Assembly: GCA_038087875.1 (NCBI GenBank)
Contig: CM075990.1
Location: 16,060,001 to 16,124,000, forward strand
Direction of reading: 5' to 3'
Length of the DNA stretch: 64,000 nucleotides
Source: Malacoraja senta
Taxonomy: Eukaryota
Shown here: one piece after another, positions 22,470 to 63,524 of the stretch
How positions within the stretch are numbered: the first letter of the stretch is position 1
Layout of the letters: each line of letters opens with the position of its first letter
Notes under the pieces: generated by a model
The model's database searches: none
What the model saw: the letters and a program-made list of their open reading frames with translations, nothing else
What the model was told of the DNA's origin: nothing
Made by a program: the position numbers and the translations under genes

Positions 22470-23595
22470 TACTTCACTTTAAACCAATATCGTGCGCTTC
22501 TACAAACCAATCCACACAAAATCATATATTTACTGAGGCACTGAAACATTTACTGAAACTGAGGCACGGCTGTTTGAGAAACTGGATTTATCTTATAATT
22601 TTAACAATTCACATCTATGTGACACCATAAACATGAGATGTTGCTCAGGATGTTTTCTGAGGGAATAAAAATACCATCAGACCGAAGTATGGTCATACTT
22701 CAGCTGATGTCATATGCTTGAATTATAAAATAATAGAGGTATTGCTATAATATTTACAAATCAGAAGCCATGCAATTGATTCCAACAAAAACCTACTTCA
22801 ACCTGTCAAAGATTATGACAAATTTAGGTATCATCATCTGTAACATACTTATAACTCATCTCTCCCATTAAAACCACAACCTCTTATTTCAGATTCTAAC
22901 ATTCTTTGCAAAACATTTACTGAACATAGGTTTCATCTGTTCCACATTTAACCAAAGTGCATTGATATCATGCCAAAGGATAAAATTCCAGCTAAATGTC
23001 AAACCATGACGTAGTTGCAGCTCTGGGTATTTTAGTAATATTTTTTTTTTAATCAATATTTACTGTGAGAATATCAAAAGAATGTAGAAGCTGTATTTGA
23101 TAGCATGTAAATGTATATAAAACGGCATCTTCCTAACTTTATACTTTAAATTTTTTACATAAATAACGGAATCACTGAATCACAGAAACACACAGCACAG
23201 AAAAAGGTCATCTCCAACCATGTTAACTCCAACTATGGTGCCACCATTCATTAATCCCATTTGACTGCTTTATGCTCATATCACTCCACACATTTCCTAT
23301 CCAACCACCAGTCTATATTGCAATTGAATCTGCCTCCATCATAGATGACAAAGATGATTATAAAAAATTACAGCAGGACTGTGATCCGTTGGGCAAGTAG
23401 GCTGAGGAATGGATAAAGGAGTTAAATGCAAGGTGGTGCATTTTAGCAAGTTAAACCAGGGCCGGACCTGCACAGTGAACCTTCTCTGTACTCCCTCTAT
23501 GGCAAGAATGTCTTTCCTCAGATTAGGAGACCAAAACTGTACACAATACTCCAGGTGTGGTCTCACCAACTCCCTGTACAACTGCAGTAGAACCT

Positions 23596-23623
23596 CTGAA
23601 GAAGGGTTTCGGCCCGAAACGTT
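23596..23623 (+). ncRNA. Minimal hammerhead ribozyme core (family B)
   Basis: CTGAAGA-A-GGGT(TTCG)GCCC-GAAA-CG-TT; the 5' strand of stem I is replaced by host sequence. Confidence 0.65.
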
Positions 23624-23689
23624 ACCTATTTCCTTCGCTCCATAGATGCTGCTGCACCCGCTGAGTTTCTCCAGCATTTTTGTGTACCT
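23597..23689 (+). mobile_element. 93-bp solo Penelope-like repeat (family B) inserted in CR1
   Basis: 14-bp TSD TGCAGTAGAACCTC (23583-23596, 23690-23703); the uninterrupted CR1 site is seen at ~59381. Confidence 0.92.
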
Positions 23690-24276
23690 TGCAGTAGAAC
23701 CTCCCTGCTCTTATACTCAAATCCTTTTGCTATGAATGCTAACATACCATTTGCTTTCTTCACTGCCTGCTGCACCTGCATGCCTACTTTCAATGACTGG
23801 TGTACCATGACACCCAGGTCTCGTTGCATCTCCCCTTTTCCTAATCGGCCACCATTTAGATAATAGTCTGCTTTCCTGTTTTTGCCACCAAAGTGGATAA
23901 CCTCACATTTATCCACATTATACTGCTTCTGCCATGCATTTGCCCACTCACCCAGCCTATCCAAGTCACCTTGCAGCCTCCTAGCATCCTCCTCACAGCT
24001 AACACTGCCCCCCAGCTTCGTGTCATCCGCAAACTTGGAGATGTTGCATTCAATTCCCTCATCCAGGTCATTAATATATATTGTAAATAGCTGGGGTCCC
24101 AGCTAGTCACTGCCTGCCATTGTGAAAAGGACCCGTTTACTCCTACTCTTTGCTTCCTGTTTGCCAGCCAGTTCTCTATCCACATCAATACTGAACCCCC
24201 AATACCATGTGCTTTAAGTTTGTATGCTAATCTCTTATGTGGGACCCCACCTATTCATAAGTCAGGGTAATGAGCA

Positions 24277-28700: not shown

Positions 28701-30779
28701 TAGTTAGATATGCTCTTAAGCTATATTTCTTAAATTCCATAGTTTGTGAAAGTGGTTTACAGCTCCTATTTTTTATATTAATTCATAAACTGAGGGAAGA
28801 GAATCTTAAAAAAATTGTCCACCAACAGGAAGATATATATTAGTCTTCACATTTCTTCAATTTCCTCTCAACTCCAAAACATCCACACTTTTAACCACTT
28901 TGATTCCACATTCAGAATCTTCCATTACACTCCTCATTCTTCCAGATTTTCACCAGATCTGTTACTAACAGGTTAACTGAATTGACAGTAACTAAATGTC
29001 ATTCTAGTTGTTGTAAATATTCCCAGTTCCAGCTCAAGAACCATTTACCTACTCGATTTTATGACTTGATACAACCCAACTAAATCATCCTTTAAACTCA
29101 ATGCCAAGGAATAGGCTGTTCACTCAATCCATCATTTAAATTGACGCCTTGTAAATTATCGTAGGATGTAAAATTGTGTGCTTTTTTTTAAACAATGAGA
29201 TCTGAACAAAATATCAATTACTTGTAATGTACAAATGCAAAATTAATGCTTTAGTTTTATTTGCATCTACACATTGACAGGAAAACACCTTGCTTTCTTC
29301 AATGTCTCACAGGTAGCCATAAATGAAATATCATCCACTTTCATTCTCGCTTGCAGCTGCAGCCTCGCCTTTGTACATAAAAGCATTCAAACAGAAAGAT
29401 ACACAACGTACATGCAAAGAATCTTTCTTTCAATCCATATAATCATTCTCACATTAACATCCAAACAAAGCCGCAATATCACTGCGCTCATAGATGGTTG
29501 TGCAGAGCCAGACATATAAAAATCAACTGGATATCTTCACATAGATTTAGAAAGAGTTAGATCATCTTTTTATACAAATGGTGGATATTGCACAGCTCCT
29601 GCACTCACGCACAAGCCTAAGGAAATGTACAGATCCTGGCACAGTTACACACAATTACATAGCCAGTGCAAAGTAGCCTGGCAGGTTCAGTCAAGTGTAG
29701 CCAAGTGCATGGCTTCACGGAGGCCTAAGCACAGAATCACCCATAAACATTGACAGTGGTACTAACAGATTAAATGTATCATTCTCATTAGAAAATTTGC
29801 ACCTGTAATCTCAAATGCTTATTCAAAATTTGAAAGCCAGCACATATCACTTTCAGGTAAATTGTAAGCTGGTGCATTTGATTCTCACTCGGGATCTCTC
29901 AAACAAGGTGTATTGCTGTACCAATAGATAAAAGCGGTCTCATCCTCAGACATGGAAATAAGCAAAGCCAAACATACATTTATAACTATAAATTTGTTTT
30001 ATGCTCATAAATTGAAAGCACTCTGTCAGAATGACCATTACACTGTTCTATTCTGCACAGACAAACTTTCATTGAGCTATACACTGATATAGATGGAGAC
30101 AGTTCCTCCAATGTCAAAACGTACACCATTCTCATGCAGAAAGTTACACATAAATAAATGTCAGGCACCCATGGAGGCAAATCACAGACCTGTTTCCAAG
30201 TCAGACTAGTGTACAACTACACAATTCAACAAATAAGCTTATGTTTTGTTTAACAAATACATTTCAGTCAGGTTCTCAATCACAACGTAATTACTCCCTT
30301 ACACAAAGATATACAACATACGAATGGCAGATTTCACAAGTCAATAGACGGCCCCAGGAAAACTCATGAATATTCCTGCCCTTATGCAACCGTACACACT
30401 CGCCAGATGAACGGTAGATGAGGAGAAAGTGAGGGAATGGAGTGGGAGCAAATGGGCCCAATAGTTGCATCATGGAAACCAAGATGTTGGTGCCCTCAAC
30501 AACTCAGAGGGGATGTTGAGGAGGAGGATGTGCCAGCAGACTGCCAGGGGGCATGTATAAAGTATTAATGTCTGATGTTGGATGGTGCCAGAGAGTAGAC
30601 TCCATAAGAAGGATGGGTGCGGATGTGTTGATGTACAGGGAAGGTGCAGTGTTGTTGCGTAGAGGGTGGGTTGTTCTGTGGTAGGTGCAAGAGGTTGTTG
30701 AGGGTGCAGGAAGGATGTTGTGTTGATGGTTTGATGTGCAGAGAGGGTGCTGGAGGGCAGGTGACAGGCTGGGGTGTTG

Positions 30780-31839
30780 CAGGGGTCTGTCGCGCGGGGG
30801 GATGTTGGTGTGTGCATTTGTGGGTGGGGATGTGTTGATGGGGTAAGTGGGGTGGGTGCATGTGTGTGGGGTGTGGGTGTGTATACCCATGTATGTGGGT
30901 GGGGTATGTGTGTCTGTGGATAGGGTAGGGTAGGAAGTGCGTGTGCACGTGTGGGTGGGGTGTGTATGTGTATGTGTGTGGTTATGCGTGCTGGTGGGGT
31001 GAGGGTGGTGTTTGTGTGAGTGTGGGGTTTGTGAGTGTGTGCATGCGTGTGTGTGCGGGTGGTGTGTGCAGGTGGGATTGTGTGTGTGTGCGCGTGGGGC
31101 GTGAGTGCGTGCGGGCGGGGTGTGTGGCGGTGGGTGGTGTGTGCGCGCGCTGGTGTGGCGTGTGTGGTTCGGATGGTGTGTGTGGGTGGTGTGTGTGCGT
31201 GCGGGGGGTGTGTGTGTGCGGGTGGGGGGTGCGCGGGTGGGGAGGTGTGTGTGTGTGTGGGGGTGGGTGCGGTGTGTGTGAGGGTGTGTGTGGTGGGGGT
31301 GTGAGTGAGTGTGTGTGATGTGGTGGGGGTGTGTGAGAGTATGTGTGTGTGGGGTGGGGGTGTGAGTGAGATTGTGTGTGTGTGTGTGTGTGTGTGTGGG
31401 GGTGCGTGTATGCGGGTGTGTGTGGTGTGGTGAGAGTGTGTGTGTGTGTGAGTGTGTGTGTGTGTGAGAGCGCATGTGGGTGTATGTGTGTGCAGGCGGG
31501 GTGGGGGTGTGTATGTGGTGGGGTGCATGTGGTGGAGTGTGTGTGGGGGTGTATGTGTGTGAAGCGTGGTGGGGTGTGTGCGTGGGGGTGGGGGGTGTGA
31601 GTGTGTGTGCGAGAGTGTGTGTGTGCAGGCGGGGTGGGGGTGTGTATGTGAGAGTGTGTGTGTGTGTGTGTGGGGGTGTGTGTGGTGGGGGTGTGTGTGT
31701 GGTGGGGTGTGTATGTGAGAGTGTGTGCGTGTGTGTGTGTGTGAGTGTGTGTGTGTGTGTGTGTGGGGGGGGTGTGTGTGTGTGTGTGGGGGGGTGTGTG
31801 TGTGTGTGTGTGTGAGTGTGTGTGTGTGTGTATGTGAGT

Positions 31840-31872
<33 letters not shown>

Positions 31873-31971
31873 GGGGGGGGGTGTGTGTGTATGTGAGTGT
31901 GTGTGTGCGTGTGTGTGTGCGTGTGTGCGTGTGTGTGTGCGTGTGTGTGTGTGTGTGTGTTCCCCAGTGTG

Positions 31972-32002
<31 letters not shown>

Positions 32003-32006
32003 TCCC

Positions 32007-32041
<35 letters not shown>

Positions 32042-32086
32042 CCCCAGTGTGTGTGTGCGTGTGTGCGTGTGTGTGTGTGTGTTCCC

Positions 32087-32125
<39 letters not shown>

Positions 32126-32160
32126 CCCCAGTGTGTGTGTGCGTGTGTGTGTGTGTTCCC

Positions 32161-32225
<65 letters not shown>

Positions 32226-32264
32226 TGTGTGTGTGTGCGTGTGTGTGTGTGTGTGTGTGTTCCC

Positions 32265-32298
<34 letters not shown>

Positions 32299-32300
32299 TG
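30780..32300. repeat. (TG)n/G-rich microsatellite with a distal TTCCCCAG-(TG)n minisatellite
   Basis: Direct reading; seven TTCCCCAG interruptions between 31960 and 32268. Confidence 0.97.
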
Positions 32301-32850
32301 GGGGTTTGACGCGCAGGTCCACACACGCAGCCCTCGCCCACCCACCCTGCCCCCGGGCGGCCCGTTGCCCCCCCCCCCCGCTCCTGTCTTCTCTCACCTC
32401 AACTCTCCGTAGCGGCCCGACCGGCGCCGTCCCGCTGTTATCTGCAGCGCGGAGGCGTAGTGCGGCTGTGGGGAGGCGGCGCTGCTCGGTGCCGGTACCA
32501 GAGGCCGCTGCCCGGCCCCATTCCCGCTCCCGAGGGCGCGCTCGTCCTCTCCGCTCGGCCGCTGCCTGACCGCTGCCCCTGCGTATGCGCGGGGGACGGA
32601 CGGACGGACGGACGGCGCAACCGCTCACTGCGCCTGCGCCGCTCGTCCCGCCCACGCACTGAGGAGGAGAATCCCGGGACTGCGCACTGCGCACGCGCCG
32701 CTGCCGGCCGCTCCGTGGTCCTCACTGCTCATGCGCGTCATTGCCGGCCGCGCCAACCGCCCCGCCTCGATCTCTTCAGTGCGCCTGCGCGCCCAGAGCG
32801 GGAGGCGCCCGTCGTGGACCGGGCACGAAGGACGACATGAAGTGTAAGCT
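32300..32850 (-). promoter_or_regulatory. CpG-island promoter with clustered NRF1-like motifs
   Basis: Very high GC/CpG content; TGCGCCTGCGC (32629-32639 and ~32780), TGCGCACTGCGCACGCGC (~32681), GCTCATGCGC (~32727). Confidence 0.8.
32398..32625 (-). other. Candidate non-coding first exon of the minus-strand gene
   Basis: Donor GAG|GTGAGA at 32397 at the edge of the CpG island, downstream of the NRF1-like cluster; TSS position is estimated. Confidence 0.55.
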
Positions 32851-49230: not shown

Positions 49231-49626
49231 AAGAATCTAATTGTTCCGTTGTAGGCATATATGATTAAACACTCTTGCCTTACTTACTCTTTCTTGGAGC
49301 AGGTTGGGGCAGCTTGTGGTTATGGAATGTGGAAGATGAGTAATAAACCTTAGAGATAACAAGACATAGATGATGATTTCAGCAGCGTTTAACCTGAGTT
49401 AACCTGAGGCAAGCAAGCAATGGCCAGTTCAAGGGTCAAATAAAATGTCAAGATTTAGAACAGTCAAACAGACAGTGGCCATGGAAAGAAATTGCAGAAA
49501 GAGTTGGGTTTATTCCTTAGTTTATTCCTTAGTTTATTCCTCAGTTAGTTCACTATAAATCCAACCAGTTTTCTAAACACAAAATGCTGGAGGAACTCAG
49601 TGGGTCAGGCAGCATTTGTGGAGGGT

Positions 49627-49945
49627 TAAAGAAGGAACTGCAGATGCTGGAAAATCGAAGGTACACAAAAATGCTGGAGAAACTCAGCGGGTGCAGCAGC
49701 ATCTATGGAGCGAAGGAAATAGGTAACGTTTCGGGCCGAAACCCTTCTTCAGACTGATAGGGGGTGGGGAGAAGAAAGGAAAAAAGGAAAAAGGCGGAGG
49801 AGGAGCCCGAGGGCTGGGGGAGGGGAGGAGACAACCAGATGGCTGATGAAGGGGAGGGGACAGCAAGGGTATTGCTCGCTGTGGCCATGGAGGAGACCCA
49901 GGACAGAGAGGTCAGATACGGAATGGGAGGGGGAGTTGAAGTGCT
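49627..49945 (-). mobile_element. Family B Penelope-like 3' fragment nested in an older Penelope-like repeat (49575-49990)
   Basis: Includes GIY-YIG-end-like sequence, terminal repeat and tail; GAGGG at both flanks (49621-49625, 49946-49950). Confidence 0.8.
49725..49752 (-). ncRNA. Minimal hammerhead ribozyme core (family B, intact)
   Basis: CTGAAGAAGGGTTTCGGCCCGAAACGTT with a 2-bp stem I (GT/AC). Confidence 0.7.
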
Positions 49946-50414
49946 GAGGGAATGGCTGGTGACATTTTGGGTTGGAACCCCTCTTCAGATTCTAGCATTT
50001 GTAGTTCATTGTTAAAGCTTTTCACCATACCTCGGTACACGTGATAATAATAATCCTATACCTAAATCTGTAATCACATTTCTAGTTTATAAATATTCAT
50101 TAATATTCAGTGCAGGGATAATAACTAATATCTTGCAGTTAACGTTCATGACTCTGTCTGCACCTTCCTGTGTTCAGTCACTGCTTCAGAGATGTTAAAT
50201 AAGGGGAGCTGATTGAACATTGTTAATTAGCACACCAGCACCATTGTTTCCTGACCCATCATAATGGTCTGTCTAACTTTATGAGCTCAACAAAACCATT
50301 AGCAAGAAAATCCCATTTGCTTTAAAAGTCCCAGGTGATGTAAAGGAACAAAAGCAAATGAAAAACAATCTCAAAAAATTAAAAGGCAGTCTTTTTTCTT
50401 AAAAGTGGAATGAG

Positions 50415-52246: not shown

Positions 52247-52559
52247 ATCACAAACAATTTGTCTTGGTCCAATCGCATTGACTCTAAAGAAAGCACACCA
52301 ATGACTCTACCTCCTCAAAAGGCTAAGGAAATTTGGCGTGACTCATAATTTCTACCGATGCAGCATGGAAACCATCCTATTGGATACCTCACAGTTTTTC
52401 CGAAGACCACAAGAACTGCAGAGAATTATGATTGCAACCTTGTCCATCAGACAAACTAGCCTATCACCCACACCCCCTTCCCCCCCACCCCCACCTCCCT
52501 CCATCTACTCTCCACTCTGTCTCTGGAAAGCAGCCAACATAATCTAACATTATTGTTCC

Positions 52560-53590
52560 TCAGCCCCGCACTGTCAGCTTCTATCCCATTCCAAAAATTC
52601 ACAAACAGGACTGCCCTGGCAGACCCATTGATTCTGCCTGCTTCTACCCCACAGATCTCATCTCTAAACCCCTTGATTCCATCCTATCCCCACTTGTCCA
52701 GTCCCTTCCGACCTTCATCCAGGACATTTCACACTCACTTCAACACTTCAATTACTTTGTTTCCAGGTCCCCATTGCCTCATCCTTACCATGGATGTTCA
52801 GTCCTTTTGCACCTCCATCCCCCTCCTCTACTAACACTCTCCTCCACCTGGCAGAACTTGTCCTCACCCTCAACAACTTTTCCTTTGACTCTTCTCACTT
52901 CATCCACGTTAAAGATGTAGCCATAGGCACTAGCATGGGCCACAACTATGCCTGCCTTTTGGTTGGTTACATCAAACCCATCGCCCAACTTTTCTCCACT
53001 ACATTGATGACTGCATCAGGGCTGCCTCCTGCACCTGTGCAGAACTCATTGATTTAATTAACTTTACCACTAATTTCCAACATGCCCTCAAGTTCACAGA
53101 CTATTTCCGACACTTCTCTCCCTTTTCTTGATCTCTGTCTCCATCACAGCGGACAGACTATCAACGGACATCTCCTACAACCCTACCGGCTAGCACCCTG
53201 CCTGTTGCAAAGCCGCAATCTCCCACTCTCAATTTCTCCATCTCTGCCGCATTTGCTCCAAGATGAGGCTTGTCATTCTAGGACATCTGAGATGTCTTCA
53301 TTTTTCAGTGAACATGGTTTCCCCCCTGATGTCACAGATGGATCCCTCACCTGCATCTCCTCTATGTCCCATAGTTCTGCTCTCACTCCCCCTGCCACCA
53401 GACAAGAATAGAGTTCCCAGGTCCACACTTTTCACCCCATCAGCCACCGTATCCAACACATCATCCTCTGACATCTCCATCACCTCCAACATGATCTCAT
53501 CACGAGTCACCCATCTTCCCATCTCCAACCCTTTCTACCTTAGTGCAGACACCACTCCCTTTGTAACTTCTTGCTTCATTCATCCCACAA
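52560..53590 (+). pseudogene. Penelope-like reverse transcriptase remnant
   Basis: LILTMDVQSFCTSIP, LAELVLTLNNFSF, VAIGTSMGHNYACLLVGY and LHYIDD motifs across frameshifts. Confidence 0.85.
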
Positions 53591-54442
53591 GGCCATAAAG
53601 CCTGCTAAATTTACGCTATTGCTTCCCCTTCTTTGCTCTTGCAAGATTTATGTATAACGTGTCTTTGTCAGTTGTCTGAGTCCATGTGCCTGTGATGCTG
53701 CTACAAGTAAAATATTCATTGTAACTGTATTCACTGCACTCGTGCGAATGACAATAAATTACACTTGACTTCATTTGACTTTGCTTTTGCCCTTCCAAAT
53801 TATTTCCTCACAAGTGCCGACCCAGTTCCCTTTTGAAGTTTCAGATTAATTGTTTCCGTCTCCGATGCAGGCAACGGATTCCAGGTCATAACTACTCTCA
53901 GACATTGGGACAGGTACATTAAAAGACATTTGGACAGCGACATGGATGGGAAAGGTTTAGAGGTATATGGGCCAATGCACGCAGGTGGGACTAGTGTAGA
54001 TGGGGCATCTCGGTCGGTGGGGGGCAAGCTGGGGCATTTTCATGCTGAATGAAAATTCAGTTATGCTAGGACTTGCTGTAAAAATCTTATTCCTCACAAC
54101 TGCTTTGTAACTTTTGCCTTCAAATTTAAACCTCTCTGCTCTGATCCATGTTTTTCTCTATTTTGTCTTAATCATATATCCAATATTTTATGGCATTAAT
54201 GTATTTGAATTTTAAGGGTTACAAATTCAAGATAACTTCAGTATTGGATTTCATATTAATTGTCTGATTATAATATACTATCAGTATATTTATCAGAAAT
54301 TGATAACTGCCCTTTTTACTCCGAATGTCTATTACACATTGGGGACAAGCTCGTGAATTTCACCATGATTGAAAAAAATCGAACAATTTTTGTGACATTT
54401 TCCATTATAAATTATACCAAGTAAAACATGATGTCGTTAATA

Positions 54443-55780
54443 TGTGTATGAAGGAACTGCAGATGCTGTTTTAAACCAAAGATAGACACAAAATGCTGGA
54501 GTAACTCAGCGGGACAGGCAGCATCTCTGCAGAGAAGGAATGGGTGACATTTCGGGTCGAGACCCTTCTTCAAACTGACGTCAGGGGGGGTGGGAGATAG
54601 ATAGATAGATAAGGAAGTGTGAAGGTGTGAAAACGGCAAAGGGAATGGAGATCAAGGAGCATGTAGAATAGATCATTGTTAGCTGGGAGGTAACAACAGA
54701 TCAAACAGAGATAAAACGTAGTCGGAGACGGTAAGACTGGTCGGAGAACTGGGAAGGAGGAGGGATGGAGAGAGAGGGAAAGCAAGGTTTATTTGAAAGT
54801 TAGAGAAGTCAATGTTCATACTGCTGGAGTGTAAGCTTCCCAAGCAAAATATGAGGTGCTGTTCCTCTAATTTGCGGTGGGCCTCATTCTGACAATGGAG
54901 GAGGCCCAGGACAGAAGTGTGGGAATGGGAGAGGGAGTTAAAGTGTTGAGCAACCGGGAGTTCAGGTAGGTTCAGGCGGACTGAGCGGAGGTGTTCAGCG
55001 AAACAATCGGCAAGCCGATATAGAAGAGTCCACACCTGGAACAGCGGATACAGGAGGATGAGGTTGGAGGAGGTGCAAGTGAACCTCTGCCTCACCTGAA
55101 AAGACAGTTGGGGTCCTTGGATGGAGTTGAGGGGGGAGGTATAGGGACAAGTGTTGCATCTCCTGCAGTTGCATGGGGAATCTACATGAGGAGGAGGTGG
55201 TTTGGGTGGAAGGGAAGAGTTGACCAGGAAGTTGTGGAGGGAATGGTCTCTGCGGAAAGCGGAAAGGGGTGGAGAAGGGAAGATGTGGCTAGTGGTGAGA
55301 TTCCATTGGAGGTGGCGAAAATGTCGGACGATTATATGTTGTATCCGATCGCTGATGGGGTGGAAGGTGAGGACAAAGGGGACTCTCCCTGTTAGGACTT
55401 GGGGGAGGGGAAACAAGAGCGGAGCTGCCGAATATCGAGAAGACCCTAGTGGGGGCCTCGTGTATGATGGAAGCGGGAATCCCCATTCCCTAAAGAATTA
55501 GGACATCGGGGTATGGAACACTTCATCTTGGGCGCCAATGCGGCATAGACGGAGGAATTGGGAGGAGAGGATAGAGTCTTTGCAAGAAGAAGGGTGGGAA
55601 GAAGTGTAGTCTAGATAGCTGTGGGAGTCAGTGGGGTTTATAATAGATGTCAGTTGATAGTCTGTCTCCTGTGATGGTTGGGAGATTTCAGCGATGGTCC
55701 AAGTGAATTTGAGTGCAGGATTGAAATTAGAAGTAAAGTTAATGAAGTCAGTGAGTTCTGTATGGGTGCAGGAGGTAGTC
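54443..55780 (-). mobile_element. 5'-truncated Penelope-like retroelement: RT C-terminus, Cys-rich linker, GIY-YIG endonuclease and hammerhead-bearing terminal repeat
   Basis: ORF 54679-55416: VPFVLTFHP, PCNCRRCNTC, FTCTSSNL, RLADCFAEHLRSV, PVAQHFN, RKLEEQHLIFCLGSL...MN; core (T)TGAAGAAGGGTCTCGACCCGAAATGTC at 54546-54573. Confidence 0.92.
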
Positions 55781-56163
55781 CAGTGTTAATAACTGGTTTT
55801 AATATATCATTGCCGTGTACTGGAAACAGAATAACAGTTTGAAAAGGTTTGAAAAATTGAATTCTCCAATTTTAGTTAGCTACAAAACTAGACATTTTGG
55901 AAATATAGGGTGCATCATCCAAATTCCTCATTCTTTTTCCTAATTAAAATCTTGTACGACAAAACAAAAAAAAAAGTGCTGTAAAATAAAAGTTCTGAAA
56001 CTTTTAAGAAGAAATTCAAACAAAATGTTGTACAATGGTCTGCGTTTCTTGGTTAGATGTGCTCGTTTTTAGTAACTTCACTCTTTACTGCAGCTAAGCT
56101 AAAGCGGTGCTTTCGATTCACATTCACGTCGAGATCTGAAACGTGACTGGTAAAATCAAATAA

Positions 56164-56288: not shown

Positions 56289-56683
56289 ACATTATTCACT
56301 TATCATCCATATGTGCACTGTGAATGGCTCGAGTGTAATGTATGGTCTTTCCGCTGACTGGTTGGCACGCAACAAAAGCTTTTCACTGTACCTCGGTACA
56401 TGTGACAATATTCAGTATTCAGTATTAACTTTATTGTCATTTCACAGAGTACTTGCATATGCAGAAGAAACAAAAAATTGTTTCTCATCAGTTTTTGTCA
56501 GTGCAATTAATAAAAACAGAAATAAATACATACAACTTTAAAAATTATCATATCTAAAATAGACCTAAAATTGAACTAAAAACAGACATTCAAACCGAAC
56601 AGTGACTTTACCTTAGGAGGTAGACAAAAATGCTGTTGAAACTCAGCGGGTGCAGCAGCATCTATGGAGCGAAGGAAATAGGC

Positions 56684-56711
56684 AACGTTTCGGGCCGAAA
56701 CCCTTCTTCAG
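56684..56711 (-). ncRNA. Minimal hammerhead ribozyme core
   Basis: CTGAAGAAGGGTTTCGGCCCGAAACGTT. Confidence 0.7.
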
Positions 56712-56712
56712 A

Positions 56713-56740
56713 CTGAGGAAGGGTTTCGGGCCGAAACGTT
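56713..56740 (+). ncRNA. Minimal hammerhead ribozyme core (one stem II mismatch)
   Basis: CTGAGGAAGGGTTTCGGGCCGAAACGTT. Confidence 0.6.
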
Positions 56741-57039
56741 GCCTATTTCCTTCGCTCCATAGATGCTGCTGCACCCGCTGAGTTTCTCCAGCATTTTTGT
56801 GTACCTTCGATTTTCCAGCATCTGCAGTTCCTTCTTGAACACGAGTGACTTTACCTTGACAGGTGTCCAGCTGTCAAGGTTTGGGTGAGGTTAGATGTGC
56901 GGGGTGTATGTGTATGGGGAAGGGACATAGATAATATATTAAAACTTAAACTTAACAGAGGTAAACGGAGAGCAGTTAAACTGCGCGACTGAAATCATTT
57001 GCATTCTGTGCCAGCAACAGGTATGCATTTTTTTTTGCA

Positions 57040-57693
57040 GAACGGCAGCAAAGTGAAATGGGGGGGGCGGGGGGAGCAAGCGGGCAGCCCCCGGGTTTGG
57101 GGGACGGACATTACAAGGAGAAGGTGTTGATGGCATTGGCATGGGGACAGTTGCAACCAGTGCAACAACACACAACGCGGGCACGGTGGTGATCACAGCA
57201 GCGACCCCAGCAACGCTGCGCCCATGCGCTTGCACGCCAATCAACCCTGCCCATTGCACAGCACAGGAGGGGTGAATGCACGGGGAATGTCGTGTAAACA
57301 TCGCGCTGGAAAGGCGTAGCAAAACCCGGAGCCGGTGTAGGTTTGCCGGCGGTGATTGTAAATGCAAATGGAGTGGTTGGGAGCAATGGAGCGCCGGGGG
57401 TGCAGCGTGGAAGGGGAGGTGCGTGTCCGGGATCACCCCCTGCGAGGAGAGCGGGCGGGCGGGGATCCGGGCTCGGCTCACGGTCACCGCTTGCAGACGC
57501 GACCGACGCAGCGGCAGCAGCAGGCAACACACGCTCTGTCCTTTACTGTTGTAGCGCTCAAAGTCACCCTCACCCTCTCACCTGCTGCTCGCTCCCCTCC
57601 CTCCCTCCCGCAGCTCATTCAAGAGGATCCCCCGTCTTGTCAGAGGCGTCCGCACCATTGCACGCCCCCGCGGACCAAACCAAAGAGCGGAGA
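57040..57693 (+). promoter_or_regulatory. ELOVL6 CpG-island promoter/5'UTR with SRE-like and CCAAT motifs
   Basis: CCAAT 57237-57241, ATTGG 57135-57139; SRE-like GTGGTGAT 57186-57193, GAGGGGTGA 57267-57275, GGCGGTGAT 57348-57356, ATCACCCCCT 57432-57441. Confidence 0.7.
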
Positions 57694-57782
57694 ATGAACA
57701 TGTCAGTGATTTCTCTGCAGGAATACGAGTTTGAGAAACATTTCGATGAAAGGGGAGCCATAGCGTGGATGCAGGAAAACTG
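57694..57782 (+). CDS. ELOVL6: Elongation of very long chain fatty acids protein 6, first coding exon
   Basis: MNMSVISLQEYEFEKHFDERGAIAWMQENW closely matches the vertebrate ELOVL6 N-terminus; 89 nt, ending in a phase-2 GTGAGT donor; later exons not seen in the window. Confidence 0.95.
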
Positions 57783-57806
57783 GTGAGTGGATTGCAGTGC
57801 ACTGCA

Positions 57807-57960
57807 TTTAAGAAGGAACTGCAGGTGCTGGAAAATCGAAGGTAGGCAAAAAATGCTGGAGAAACTCAGCGGGTGCAGCAGCATCTATGGAGCGAAGGAA
57901 TATTTCCTTCGCTCCATAGATGCTGCTGCACCCGCTGAGTTTCTCCAGCTTTTTGTCTAC
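57807..57960. mobile_element. Young fold-back Penelope-like insertion (family B), hammerhead absent, in ELOVL6 intron
   Basis: Perfect 46-bp inverted repeat 57855-57900 / 57904-57949; CTGCA at both flanks. Confidence 0.9.
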
Positions 57961-58780
57961 CTGCAGGTGTGTAAAGCCTCGGCGCCTGGTTAAAGGATGC
58001 ACCGCTCCCAGTTTAACATCAGACCCACTCAAACGCGTAAACAGTTCGAATATAGATCGAAAATCCGGTCCGGGTTATCAATAATCACGGGAGAATGCTT
58101 CTGGTCTGCTTCTGACGAGGTGTGGATTGTATTCTCGTGAAACTAGTTGTAATTTTGCATTAAAAGATGTGTTCCTTGTATTCAGAGTCGCGGTGTGTGT
58201 GTGACCTAATTGTAATTGACAGTGTGCAATGATCGGGTGTAACCGTATCTGCCCATCAGGGTTGCAGGTAAACAGGCCGGAATAGGGTGGATGCCTTCAA
58301 TAAAATGCGGATCGTGTCCAAGTGAGACATTGTAAGACATGTTTTGTAGCAATGCTCAGTGATTCTGATTGCCTGGTGATTGTTACTCAGGAACCACGGA
58401 TTTGAGAATGGGTGATTGAGGCACGATTAGCAACTTCCACCGTGACTGTAGACCTGTCAGGTACATCTGTAATCACCCCCTGATGATAGCTTACACTATC
58501 TGGCATCATTTTCCAGACAGTATAATAAATACCAACGTCGTGGTACATTACAGAATGTGAAGAATATTTGCAGCCCTTAAATTGGCCAGGCCCGATGTGG
58601 TAAATGGGATTCATTGACATTCCTGTATTTACAAGATACCAGAGTGTAACAGTGGTGATGCACAATGCTTTGTCCAGCGTGCAGCTACTTTGCAACAAAA
58701 CCCAAATATTAAAACCATAAACATGCATTACAAAACACAAAGTGCTGAGAGAACTCAGGCAGCACGTGTGGAGCAAATGG

Positions 58781-59541
58781 ACATACATAGATACATAGAT
58801 ACATAGAAAAGAGGTGCAGGAGTAGGCCATTCGGCCCTTCGAGCCTGCACCGCCATTCAATATGATCATGGCTGATCATCCAACTCAGTATCCCGTACCT
58901 GCCTTCTCTCCATACACCCTGATCCCTTTAGCCACAAGGGCCACATCTAACTCCCTCTTAAATATAGCCAATGAACTGGCCTCAACTACCCTCTGTGGCA
59001 GAGAGTTCCAGAGATTCACCACTCTCTGTGTGAAAAAGTTTTTCCTCATCTCGGTCTTAAAGGATTTCCCCCTTATCCTTAAGCTGTGACCCCTTGTCCT
59101 GGACTTCCCCAACATCGGGAACAATCTTCCTGCATCTAGCCTGTCCAACCCCATAAGAATTTTGTACGTTTCTATAAGATCCCCTCTCAATCTCCTAAAT
59201 TCTAGCGAGTATAAGCCAAGTCTATCCAGTCTTTCTTCATATGAAAGACCTGACATCCCAGGAATCAGTCTGGTGAACCTTCTCTGCACTCCCTCTATGG
59301 CTATAATGTCCTTCCTCAGATTTGGAGACCAAAACTGTACGCAACACTCCAGGTGTGGTCTCACCAAGACCCTGTACAACTGCAGTAGAACCTCCCTGCT
59401 CCTATACTCAAATCCTTTTGCTATGAAAGCTAACATACCATTCGCTTTCTTCACTGCCTGCTGCACCTGCATGCCTACTTTCAATGACTGGTGTACCATG
59501 ACACCCAGGTCTCGCTGCATCTCCCCTTTTCCTAATCGGCC
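58781..59541 (-). mobile_element. Young CR1-clade LINE 3' end
   Basis: Open 211-aa RT C-terminal ORF 58885-59520, 3' UTR and (ATCTATGT)n tail; splits an older Penelope-like repeat (58730-58780 plus 59545-59580). Confidence 0.95.
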
Positions 59542-60424
59542 ACATGCAATGTTTCTGGTCAGGATCCTCCTTCAGACTGAGGGAGTAATGGGCAGAATGC
59601 TGCAAAAGAGAGGCAGGGTGTGTGGTAAAGCTTGACAAGTGAGAGGTGGATACAGATGAGGGAGGGGGCGATTGGCAGATGGGTGGAGATGGTGACAAAA
59701 GCAGCAGCTGAACATGGGTGTTAGGTAAGGAAAGACTAGGAGGAGTGAAGTGTGAAGCCAGAGGATGGTAGAGTCTGAAGAAGGGTCCCAACCAGAAACA
59801 TCTCTTACTCTTTTTCTCCAGAGAAGCTACCTGACCTGTTGTTACTCCAACATGTAGTGTCTATATCCAGAGGGATGGATATCGGTGGAAGGGGTTGGGT
59901 GGGTGGGGGAGTGGGGGGGGAGAGGATACACTGTTATGGGACCAGGATTGTATGTGGGGTGGGGGGGGGGAAGGAGGGAGCAGAGTGACTGAGGTGAGGG
60001 GAGAGATGATTATCTACTGTGGTAGATGGTGCAGCGAGATGTGAGGGGTATATTACTTGCGATATTAGTTTAAATACAGTGCATATGTATACATATATCC
60101 ATAACAGCAGAATATATGTTTGCAGATAAGCAATATAACTGTCTTTAGTTCTTGTAATTGAATTTATTCAGAGACATGATCTGAGCAGAGATGAAGTCAT
60201 TATCTTGGTTGCTGCAGAATACAGATAATCCATAAGTGGCCCTGGTTTTAGAATTCATGTGATGTTGTTTGACACATGGAGGAGAAGTGTTCAAGTAGAT
60301 TTTTTAAAGGTCGTGGCATCCCCTGAATGTTGTTCACTTTGGAAATTATTGCAAAACAAGATTGGCAACTTTATAATTTCTTTCAAAGTCAGCGACAATG
60401 GAAAGTTGATGGAAGAGGGAGGAG

Positions 60425-60610
60425 AGTCACAAGAGACTGCAGATGCTGGAGTCTTGAGTAAAACGCAAAGTGCTGGAAGAACTCGGTGGACCATGCAGCA
60501 TCTATGGAGGAAATGGTTGTGGGTTCCAACCTGAAATGTTGTCTGTCCATTTCCCTCCAAAGATGCTGCCTGGCCCGCTAAATTCCTCCAGCATATTGGT
60601 TTTTGCACAG
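60425..60610. mobile_element. Older fold-back Penelope-like repeat
   Basis: Diverged inverted arms GCTGGAAGAACTCGGTGG...GCAGCATC / GATGCTGCC...CCCGCTAAATTCCTCCAGC. Confidence 0.7.
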
Positions 60611-61270
60611 GTCGATTGAAGACTTCTTTCAACTTGAGTTCTGCAGAGTTTGGTTGTCAGTGGAACTGAGTTCTCATAACCTTAAAGAGAAATGCATATT
60701 CATCGCTTGATGATAAAAAAAAATATGTGATGCAATGGGAATAGATCTATTGCATGTCTATCATTGCAAGAGGGACAGAGTATTGCTATAAATTTGTGTT
60801 TTGTAGAAACCGTGGTAATCGAAGAGACAAACAGCGCAGTGATGCGGCTAGTAAAGTTGCTGCAGGGACTCAGGTTTGCTCCTGACCTCCCTTCCATTGC
60901 ATGAATTATCCCCAAGGCGCTCCAGATTGCTCCCACATCCCAAAGATACGCAGGATGGGAGAAGAATTGTACTGTAGATTGGCATTGTAGATTGTCCCTA
61001 ATGTGTAGGAGACTGGTTGAATCTGGGGGAGCGGGGTGGAATAAAATAAAACTTCATATGTAATGAGTCCTTGTATGGACTCTGTGGGCTTGAGGACTTG
61101 TTTTTATGTTCTGCGACTCTATAATAACTATACACATGAGTATTGTTAAGTCCATTGCTCGGTACAGTATTGCAGCAATATTAACTGCATAAAGTTTTAG
61201 TTAGAGTAAGCTAATTTCAACCCTGGGGAGGAGTTGCCTTCTCGGATCTGAAAACAACAAAGAAACACTT

Positions 61271-62078
61271 TATGTGCAGGAAGGAACTGCAGGTGCTGGT
61301 TTACACCGAAGGTAGACACAAAATGCTGGAGTAACTCAGCGAGACAGGTAGCATCTCTGGATAGAAGGAATGGGTGATGTTTCAGATCAAGACCCTTCTT
61401 CAGACTGAGAGTCAGGGGAGAGGGAGACACAGAGATAAGGAAGGGTAAGGTGTGAAAACAAGACATCAAGAGATGTGGATCAAGGAAAATGTAGAATAGA
61501 TCATTGTTGGCTAGGTGAAGGTGACAACAAAGCAAACAAACAAAATGTAATTTGGGACAGTCAGACTGGTCGGAGAACAGGGAAGGGGGAGGGAATAGAG
61601 AGAGAGGGAAAGCAAGGGTTACTTGAAGTTAGAGAAGTCAATATTCATACCGCTGGGGTGTAAGCTACCCAAGCAAAATCTGGGGTGCTGTTCCTCCAAT
61701 TTGCACTGGGCCTCACTCTGACAATGGAAGAGGCCCAGGACAGAAAGGTTGGTGTGGGAATTGGAGCAGGAGAAAGTGTTTAGCAACTAAGTGCAAGCAA
61801 ATGTTTAAACCTTGCACAGGCTCGGTGATCGTTTCACTGAACACCTCCGCTCAGTCTGCCTAAACCTACCTGATCTGTCGGTTGCTAAACGCTTTTAACA
61901 TTTTCCTTGATCTTTTGATGTCTCATTTTCACACCTTACCCTTCCTTATCTCAGTGTCTCCCTCTCCCCTGACTCTCAGTCTGAAGAAGGGTCTTGACCC
62001 GAAATGTCACTCATTCCTTCTATCCAGAGATGCTGCCTGTCCCGCTGAGTTACCCCAGCATTTTGTGTCTAATATCTT
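61271..62078. mobile_element. Penelope-like insertion with inverted terminal repeats and GIY-YIG C-terminal fragments
   Basis: Inverted arms ~61310-61495 / ~61899-62070, cores at 61376-61403 (-) and 61981-62008 (+); 13-bp TSD CAAAGAAACACTT (61258-61270, 62079-62091). Confidence 0.9.
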
Positions 62079-63524
62079 CAAAGAAACACTTCACTTCATT
62101 TTACAGCACCCAAGTGTCGAAGGAGCTCTCTCTGTCTCATTACATCCCAAAAAGGCTGCAATTTTTCTGGCTGCTAAACTTGGGAAGACCATCCAGTTGT
62201 GGTGTGGACACCAACTGAATTGCTGACCATCTTGAACACCTGCTCACAGATGCAGAGCAAACGGGACATGCTCAGCAGGCCAGGCAGCATCTGGGTGGAA
62301 GCAGAAGTCAGATGAGATTCAGACCCTTCCTTGGAACCCGAGTTATCATTCCAATTGCTCAAGCGCAGAGCCGTTGGCCATCCCCAGCACTCTTTTGTTT
62401 TCTGTCGTCAGCTAAATCAGGTTTTCAAGGAGCACACATTGCTCTCATTTGTCAACTGTGAAAATAAATATGAAATAGTTGATTATTTATTTAAATCCTA
62501 AAACCAACTATTGTCTTGAGAGTGATTCGGGTTTAGTTTCGTTTTTTGCGTCATATACATCAGGGTGCTGTGAAACCCCTCGTTCACATGAAGCTCGCAG
62601 AGTAAACAGTGTACATAGAGTAACAATAAATACAATAGCCAGTGCAAAACAGCAGAATGGTGCAAGACTGACTTTGGTGCCTTCCCTCACAGTGGGAAAC
62701 TTTTGATCCTGCTGTGTGGGGATGTTTTATGTTTAAATCTATGGTGTGTTGTGTTCTTTATTTCAATGTATGGCTGTATGGTAATCACATTTCACTGTGC
62801 CAACTGGCACATGTGACAAATAAATATATCTTGTATCTTGTTGATTGTAGTGCAGATAAGATAGAATGAATGCATGTAGTTACTTTAGTATTGGGCCTTT
62901 GGGAAATAAAGGACATATTTCCCTTGATTGCGAGATTGATAACTAAAGACATGCATGTAAGTTAACTAGAAGATGGATTATTGGAAGTGCAAAATAAAGA
63001 GAAGAGTGTTGAGGAATTGGAACTAAAAGCAGAATATTGGAAGAAGTCAGCGGATCAAGTTACACATGTCGAGGCAAAAGGACCAAGTCAACATTTCAGG
63101 CTGAGACCCTGTGAGGTTTAGGTTTATTATTGTCACGTGTACCAACGAACAATGAAAAGCTTTGTTGTGCATGCTGTGCAATCAGATCATATAATTGTTA
63201 ATGTAAATATGATCAAGTCAAACTCCAGGACAATAGGTGGATCAAAGGGGAAGGTACAGAGTGCAGAATATAACTCTAAGCATTGTAGCACATCGATCCA
63301 ATGTCCGCTAATGGGGTAGAGGGGAAACGATGCAACAGTTTTGTGGCCACATTCAGATTTAGTTTTTAGGCAAGCTTTAATAACAACAATTAAAGACAAC
63401 ACATTTCAACTTTGAAAGGAGGCACGGCAATCTTGGTTATAATCTATAGACACCTTTTAACTGTTTTTTGATCTTAGATGTAGCTCAGGTGCTTTGAATG
63501 AAACATAGGCGTGGGAATCAATTG

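Follow-up and report, generated by a model that had tools for sequence, protein, structure and literature searches.

Background

In the 5′ inversions produced by L1 twin priming, two target nicks prime two cDNAs that are joined by microhomology; the two parts come from a single RNA and do not overlap in it. For Penelope-like elements (PLEs), the typical insertion described in PMC8557442 has an inverted, 5′-truncated copy at its 5′ end and a tail of 30-40 bp on one side, and the account of Adineta vaga in PMC3846280 reports inverted pLTRs that overlap, palindromes at head-to-head junctions, and TSDs of 8-10 bp; the origin of the tandem and inverted structures of PLEs is called unresolved in both sources. 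A CX2-5CxxC linker before the GIY-YIG domain is given in PMC8557442 as a feature of the Neptune and Nematis clades. According to the experiments described in PMC11167929, the protein of an anole PLE both cuts and extends the two target strands in vitro, with two RT start sites delimiting the tail, and the anole PLE hammerhead needs its protein. The minimal hammerheads (min-HHRs) of PMC4209133 are described there as requiring a second copy on the same strand and as cleaving weakly even then, while non-LTR retrozymes, as presented in bioRxiv 10.64898/2026.07.22.740005, consist of tandem head-to-tail units with a hammerhead in each.

Here we describe a palindromic insertion upstream of an ELOVL6-like gene in a 64-kb stretch of DNA, the whole of which was analysed and is referred to as the window. 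The palindrome is real; it is what a very common PLE ordinarily leaves behind, and not a special locus. It is a known kind of insertion, with four further examples inside the same window.

Anatomy of the palindromic insertion

The initial annotation had described a 229-bp insertion with a perfect 14-bp TSD, whose arms of ~93 bp meet at the single base 56712, and each of these points was confirmed. The TSD, AGTGACTTTACCTT, is exact over its 14 bp and has no other occurrence in the window, and the insert between its two copies measures 229 bp and contains no ORF. The inverted arms (Table 1) are 94 nt each, are spaced by 1 nt, and are complementary at 89 of 94 positions, with mismatches at offsets 5, 18, 75, 76, and 89 from the centre. 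The insert is asymmetric, with the plus arm extending for a further 37 nt that have no partner. Folding of the two strands gave z = -21 and -23, with none of 200 shuffles as stable in either case, and the predicted energy of the hairpin, if transcribed, is -172/-188 kcal/mol, in agreement with the earlier suggestion of a long dsRNA hairpin in promoter-upstream transcripts. The right TSD lies 837 bp before the ATG of the ELOVL6-like gene at 57694, in agreement with the ~850 bp first estimated.

Table 1 Coordinates of the focal insertion and of related features in the window
Positions	Strand	Feature	Basis
49625..49961	-	Copy of the young subfamily (97% identity to the long arm) that retains native upstream sequence and a remnant of the GIY-YIG region	
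54441..55782	-	Longer PLE remnant of an older subfamily: RT-thumb, CX4CxxC linker and GIY-YIG coding sequence, then hammerhead unit and tail directly	
56601..56614	+	Left TSD, 14 bp	
56615..56617	.	3 nt separating TSD from short arm; partial family match (filler or decayed end)	Alignment
56618..56711	-	Short arm: PLE pLTR 3′ part, unit positions 1-94, without tail	
56684..56711	-	Minimal type I hammerhead core, motif intact	Motif as defined in PMC4209133
56708..56716	.	Junction: native micro-palindrome TCAG-N-CTGA common to both arms	
56713..56740	+	Second hammerhead core, damaged	
56713..56806	+	Long arm: PLE pLTR 3′ part, unit positions 1-94	
56807..56843	+	One-sided 37-nt "tail", typical of PLE insertions	As described in PMC8557442, PMC3846280
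56844..56857	+	Right TSD, 14 bp	
57694..57782	+	First coding exon of ELOVL6-like gene, 89 nt, GT donor next	
57807..57962	.	Head-to-head sister insertion, same young subfamily, in ELOVL6-like intron; cores absent	

The arms are the 3′ end of a Penelope-like element

Sequence of the arms is highly abundant. BLAST returned 34 rows in the window (self and short matches included), and an nhmmer search of the window with the arm unit gave 37 merged matches; the 30 with E<1e-3 were retained and the other 7 discarded. In a run from the same species (X1), summed contig depth over the focal insert was ~1.2e7 compared to 22-40 on unique flanks, which points to a copy number of order 10^5 for the arm family, depth itself not being a copy number.

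The hammerhead-bearing unit comes directly after GIY-YIG-coding remnants at three loci (54441-55782, 61271-61787, and 49625-49961), and tblastn with shark and ray relatives matched remnants of the endonuclease region immediately before the unit, at 54796-55782, 61622-61771, and 49869-49961. The frame at 54679-55497 encodes a CX4CxxC motif, also present in sequence P0001, and a GIY-YIG-like C-terminus. For the frame taken from 54682 to 55497, 17 relatives from rays, a skate, and a shark were found (E 2e-55 to 2e-43), which places the host among the cartilaginous fishes; seven of the eight relatives compared to Pfam had some match, with GIY-YIG in six (below the curated cut-off) and RVT_1 in two, and the domain order was RVT_1 followed by GIY-YIG. 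Pfam returned no PLE domain for nine frames of the window, this one included, and the RVT_1 match at 23626-24102 belongs to a LINE and not to a PLE. Only fragments occur within the 64 kb, where no full-length PLE (pLTR-ORF-pLTR) was found. Since the unit directly follows endonuclease-coding remnants, the arms are, judging from the combination of weak matches, motifs, and anatomy in the sequence, the 3′ end (part of a pLTR plus tail) of an endonuclease-bearing PLE, which by its linker motif alone would be of the Neptune/Nematis type.

Two decayed PLE coding remnants, ~65% alike, lie in opposite orientation at 52460-53598 (plus strand, RT/thumb) and 54441-55782 (minus strand, thumb-linker-GIY-YIG), and at 23583-23703 a young copy without a tail, with a duplication of 13-14 bp, stands alone inside a LINE reverse-transcriptase frame. 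Exact-pattern scans for further copies gave 0 in viral contigs and 0 and 0 in two scans of metagenome contigs. Searches of the open literature found no paper on PLE palindromes of skates or sharks, and the arm family may well have been catalogued already.

Head-to-head pairs are a habit of the family

Four abutting head-to-head pairs (gap <=30), the focal pair included, are present among the 30 copies, against a null mean of 0.25, a count reached in 1 of 20,000 simulations; with the focal pair left out, three pairs against 0.25 give P ~0.002 by hand Poisson arithmetic. Abutting tail-to-tail pairs number zero among the same copies. A fifth, longer head-to-head pair spans 61271-62071, and the density of such pairs in the window is one per ~13 kb. 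All five resolved pairs combine one long, tailed arm, ending at unit positions 118-133, with one short, tail-less arm ending at 85-94, and the short arms stop at 92-94 in several of them. Their 5′ breakpoints differ in every case (13/4, -4/-4, 35/32, ~38/38 or earlier, and -380/-90). A repeat of at least 10 bp was detected at 6 of the 15 sites tested for TSDs, and three of the six candidate pairs tested have TSDs of 14-15 bp, those at 2307/2525 and 61258/62079 carrying one mismatch each. Solo copies with TSDs include both a tail-less and a tailed example (23596 and 16843).

The two pairs with imperfect TSDs, at 2307-2538 (14 bp) and 61258-62093 (15 bp), are older, and both arms of the second hold endonuclease-coding sequence. 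A decayed head-to-head pair at 60429-60610 has no detected TSD, and a probable sixth pair lies at 59538-59867, where the minus arm is cut short beside a LINE remnant. Both young palindromic insertions adjoin small palindromes of the target, one with 13-bp arms at 56853-56880 that overlaps the right TSD of the focal insert and one, perfect over 14 nt, at 57793-57806 to the left of the intron copy; this could be chance or a target preference. Elsewhere in the window, a degenerate (CA/GT)n tract of ~1.9 kb at 30470-32400 shows a strong GC skew (0.63) and is followed by a GC-rich block at 32400-32850, and an unrelated A+T-rich inverted repeat at 651-831 (58-nt arms, 78%, 4-nt spacer, outer 37-nt arms) is possibly a decayed derivative of a DNA transposon.

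The centre of the palindrome and the joining of its arms

In all eight copies inspected, a native pyrimidine tract leads up to the core and closes with CAG-T-CTGA (TTGA in one copy). TCAG-T-CTGA is a 9-nt micro-palindrome, and TCAGWCTGA has 9 occurrences compared to 0.73 expected. The same place is a hotspot of 5′ truncation, with 10 of the 30 copies starting at unit positions -6 to +2, just before the core. Two arms that stop at this hotspot and overlap on the micro-palindrome give the one-base centre that is observed, and the cores lie at the centre because copies of this PLE family commonly begin there, and not through selection for two ribozymes. A clean palindromic overlap at the centre is seen in the focal pair only, among the five. 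The native pre-core sequence appears to resemble a splice acceptor; for the PLE of D. virilis, an intron end at helix I is described in PMC4209133.

The focal insert is very probably a single, heavily 5′-truncated insertion of an endonuclease-bearing PLE with a Neptune-type linker, laid down head-to-head with a one-sided tail. As to how the arms came together, we lean towards two nicks and two cDNAs from two RT start sites, joined at the micro-palindrome. In this process, a GIY-YIG/RT protein would nick both target strands 14 nt apart, and each 3′ end would prime a cDNA at one of the two start sites, unit ~94 without the tail or unit ~130 with it. Both cDNAs would stop at the truncation hotspot just upstream of the hammerhead core and would then anneal via the native TCAG/CTGA micro-palindrome, followed by fill-in.

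The same family and anatomy could also have been produced from a single template, possibly an antisense RNA, if the inverted arm arose by self-priming or fold-back at the micro-palindrome. This alternative, which we regard as possible but rather unlikely, would expect both arms to stop at exactly one 9-nt palindrome, as the focal arms do; the junction palindromes of rotifer Penelope elements are read as self-priming in PMC3846280, and G is common to both focal arms at offset 30, a position at which two other young copies carry A. Against this, a fold-back of the tailed arm would have left T on the plus strand at 56712, whereas the base present is A, which is native for the minus, tail-less arm, and a fold-back of that arm could not account for the tail. 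The alleles of the family at offset 89 differ between the arms, and both are found at other loci, with G in 3 of 12 aligned segments (the long arm, 23596, and 49752) and C in the other 9. Each of these points needs an extra mutation under fold-back, and the other four pairs have unequal breakpoints or spacers. Two cDNAs are favoured over fold-back since the centre base is native to an arm that could not have templated the tail, and since the site at offset 89, which differs between the arms, is diagnostic of subfamily. The two-cDNA step depends on two single bases at one locus, and the G at offset 30 fits one template equally.

In a run from organism D (X4), a loose-end consensus at 56723 was formed by 57 contigs with an agreement of 0.63; this looks like further head-to-head junctions on a second micro-palindrome, in stem II, and is suggestive only. 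As a tentative generalization, about which we hold more doubt than belief, head-to-head PLE insertions at large might consist of two separately primed, non-identical cDNAs, one per RT start site and per nicked strand, annealed at a native micro-palindrome instead of self-primed by fold-back, with ~10^4-10^5 such pairs in skate and ray genomes. Searches of the open literature found no paper on two-cDNA joining or twin priming in PLEs. In young pairs of the arm family, the centre base and the arm alleles can tell two-cDNA joining from self-priming, and if the two-cDNA reading is true, the pairs of skates and rays would be enough to settle the origin of PLE inverted ends by sequence analysis alone.

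The hammerhead cores

A ribozyme core had been annotated as beginning on each strand immediately next to the centre, and this stood in part: CUGANGA starts at 56711 on the minus strand and at 56713 on the plus strand, but only the minus core passed the stem-II test. Both cores carry the letters of a min-HHR, namely CUGANGA, GAAA, UH, the bulge before stem II, G10.1-C11.1, and the palindromic 15.2-16.2, with U as H17. In the minus core these take the form of CUGAAGA, a bulged A, a stem II of 4 bp with a UUCG loop, and GAAA-CG-UU; its stems pair fully (4/4 in stem II, 2/2 in stem I) and the predicted cut falls between 56684 and 56683. Pairing in the plus core is 3/4 in stem II, with a G.G mismatch, and 1/2 in stem I, with A.G at the first pair. 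Across 14 cores, 90.5% of stem cells pair, above all slid controls, and a search for covariation in the stems of 14 copies found 0 pairs changed on both sides, with 500 of 500 shuffles as high. A comparison of the whole window with Rfam gave nothing that reached gathering score, and its 12 matches at E<=10, all below threshold, were to generic miRNA-hairpin models, with none to a hammerhead family.

Activity of two ribozymes at this locus was not borne out, given cores on opposite strands, their sequestration by the hairpin, and the damage to the plus core. The active dimer of a min-HHR requires a second core on the same strand, and the focal cores cannot dimerise because they lie on opposite strands. 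Any through-transcript contains the antisense arm before its core is made, and release of the core from the hairpin costs 36 (minus) or 47 (plus) kcal/mol. Cleavage at the focal locus would therefore seem improbable, and the lack of an ORF, together with opposite-strand cores that are base-paired in through-transcripts, indicates a product that is in all likelihood inert.

Stem II of the plus core is broken by a C-to-G change at the centre of a 15-nt native palindrome (56723-56737). The change equals the strand flip of this palindrome, which suggests that it came from a local template switch.

Age of the insertion and its place beside ELOVL6

Unique flanks differed by 0-2 letters in run X1, from the same species, and by 40 of ~876 letters (~4.6%) in run X4, from organism D. 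The sister palindrome in the intron has an arm identity of 58/59, closer than that of the focal arms; one X4 contig begins in the unique promoter and reaches 45 nt into it, another enters its other end, and it thus predates the species split. The youth and possible polymorphism first suggested for the focal insert are not supported, as arm identity is no clock and the sister is common to organism D. All 12 CpGs counted in two arm segments (5 and 7) are present and none of the five arm mismatches is CpG decay, and the intact CpGs fit a recent or an unmethylated insert. The flanks of the focal insert are repeats themselves (depth ~6,500 on the left and 205 on the right in run X1), and, with four of 21 listed runs compared, no bridging of its junctions was found among the contigs listed in X1, X11, and X4. 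Records X11-11 (56500-56614, then 20 other letters, at multi-copy depth) and X4-21 (to 56610, then other letters) are probably paralogous empty forms and not alleles. Skip-type joints within the palindrome were left aside, being unreliable owing to its internal similarity. The flanking mid-copy repeat covers 56411-56950, with a left depth ~200-fold that of unique DNA, and has no other copy in the window.

The 30 residues encoded from the ATG at 57694 show 100% identity to the N-terminal end of a stingray protein annotated as ELOVL6-like (PF01151; one of 2 candidates). The next ELO exon was not picked up by a motif scan reaching to 64000, a PDB sequence search for ELOVL6 identity gave 0 matches, and the protein atlas gave unnamed clusters only, with low recognition. 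A pyrimidine tract ending in CAG lies at 57575-57612, 81 bp before the ATG. The layout suggests a putative upstream non-coding exon of ELOVL6, with the TSS nearer 57450-57500. The sister palindrome is 25 bp into the intron, has no clear TSD, and brackets the promoter together with the focal insert.

An effect of the insert on ELOVL6 expression, proposed in the initial annotation, is unsupported, the insert lying outside the CpG-rich promoter block (~57000-57800) and among other repeats. Action of the insert as a cruciform, by way of upstream antisense transcripts that form a dsRNA hairpin, or as a promoter element derived from the pLTR is in our judgement very unlikely. The stable hairpin predicted for a transcript, the intact CpGs, and the short distance to the CpG-rich block (~150-250 bp) speak for it, and an effect at such a distance is not impossible given the SREBP sites out to -532 from the TSS that are described for pig ELOVL6 in PMC3544903. 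Against it, the insert sits within a run of repeats with depths of 6,500 to 10^7, compared to 22-40 for unique DNA, and head-to-head pairs occur every ~13 kb in the window. Cruciform extrusion would be physically possible, but its modelled cost is ~45 kcal/mol before supercoiling (hairpins of -115.0 and -108.2 versus a duplex of -268.3), and A+T makes up only 48% of the palindrome centre. In a single poly(A) run from organism D, of which ~6% was read, 13,526 reads matched, 97% of them continuing into other sequence and the strands being equal; the unique flanks had 0 reads and there was no pile-up of read ends. Local transcription thus found no support here, a weak result, as the ELOVL6 exon also had 0 reads and the species is a different, related one. 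The focal locus matters little, as one of several equivalent stubs in 64 kb, and has a modest value as a clean specimen. If the density of pairs in this one window holds genome-wide, such hairpins would give cartilaginous fishes a large latent supply of dsRNA and of fragile palindromes.

The stub might instead be a mobile, non-autonomous unit in its own right, copied whole in the manner of a MITE or a retrozyme, but this too is very unlikely. Short arms ending at nearly one point in several pairs, and a palindrome of the same subfamily 950 bp away, are what might recommend it, but all five centres differ, solo tail-less and solo tailed copies with their own TSDs exist, the ends are asymmetric with a TSD of 14 bp, and there are no tandem head-to-tail hammerheads as in retrozymes. 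A MITE was ruled out by the 37-nt unpaired tail and the five different centres (no symmetric ends, no uniform copies), and a non-LTR retrozyme array by the head-to-head order; the description of the insert as retro-derived and MITE-like in appearance only proved right. An assembly or library fold-back artefact is scarcely credible, since, although none of the contigs listed in run X1 crosses the insert or either junction, the arms differ at 5 sites, the 14-bp TSD is exact, the tail is one-sided, the anatomy is typical of the family, and the window holds two older pairs with decayed TSDs and arms.

Comparison with known systems

In L1 twin priming, the likeness proposed here lies in the two nicks, two cDNAs, and microhomology, and the difference in the focal insert, where one segment is present twice. 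Like MITEs, the insert is short, non-coding, hairpin-forming, and flanked by a TSD, and it shares with the retrozymes presented in bioRxiv 10.64898/2026.07.22.740005 a type I hammerhead and PLE ancestry. It differs from both in having no fixed symmetric ends or centre while being retro-derived, and in not being a head-to-tail array.

With the min-HHRs of metazoan PLE pLTRs, as defined in PMC4209133, the focal cores have in common CUGANGA, the bulged base, G10.1-C11.1, and a palindromic A-C-G-U that replaces stem III. The dual opposite-strand motifs described in that source are 100-700 bp apart, whereas the focal cores are 1 nt apart; stem II is 4 bp here versus 6-8 there, stem I is 2 bp here, and the plus core is damaged. 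PAc, the Poseidon element of Anolis described in PMC11167929, is similar in its two classes of 3′ end ~35 nt apart, in the extension of both target strands, and in the absence of a read-end pile-up at the hammerhead cut, and it belongs to a different clade, judged by the CX4CxxC linker (Neptune/Nematis type) found here.

A close likeness in arrangement is to Pen2a and Pen3a of Adineta vaga, as described in PMC3846280 and drawn in the scheme of PMC8557442 (Fig. 2), with which the focal insert shares the inverted 5′-truncated head-to-head copy, the overlap at a palindromic junction, the 30-40-nt tail on one side only, and the TSD enclosing the whole unit. In contrast to the descriptions of these elements, the TSD here is 14 bp rather than 8-10 bp, the junction palindrome is 9 nt, the family is very abundant, and both arms are ORF-less stubs, so that the whole insert is a 229-bp hairpin.
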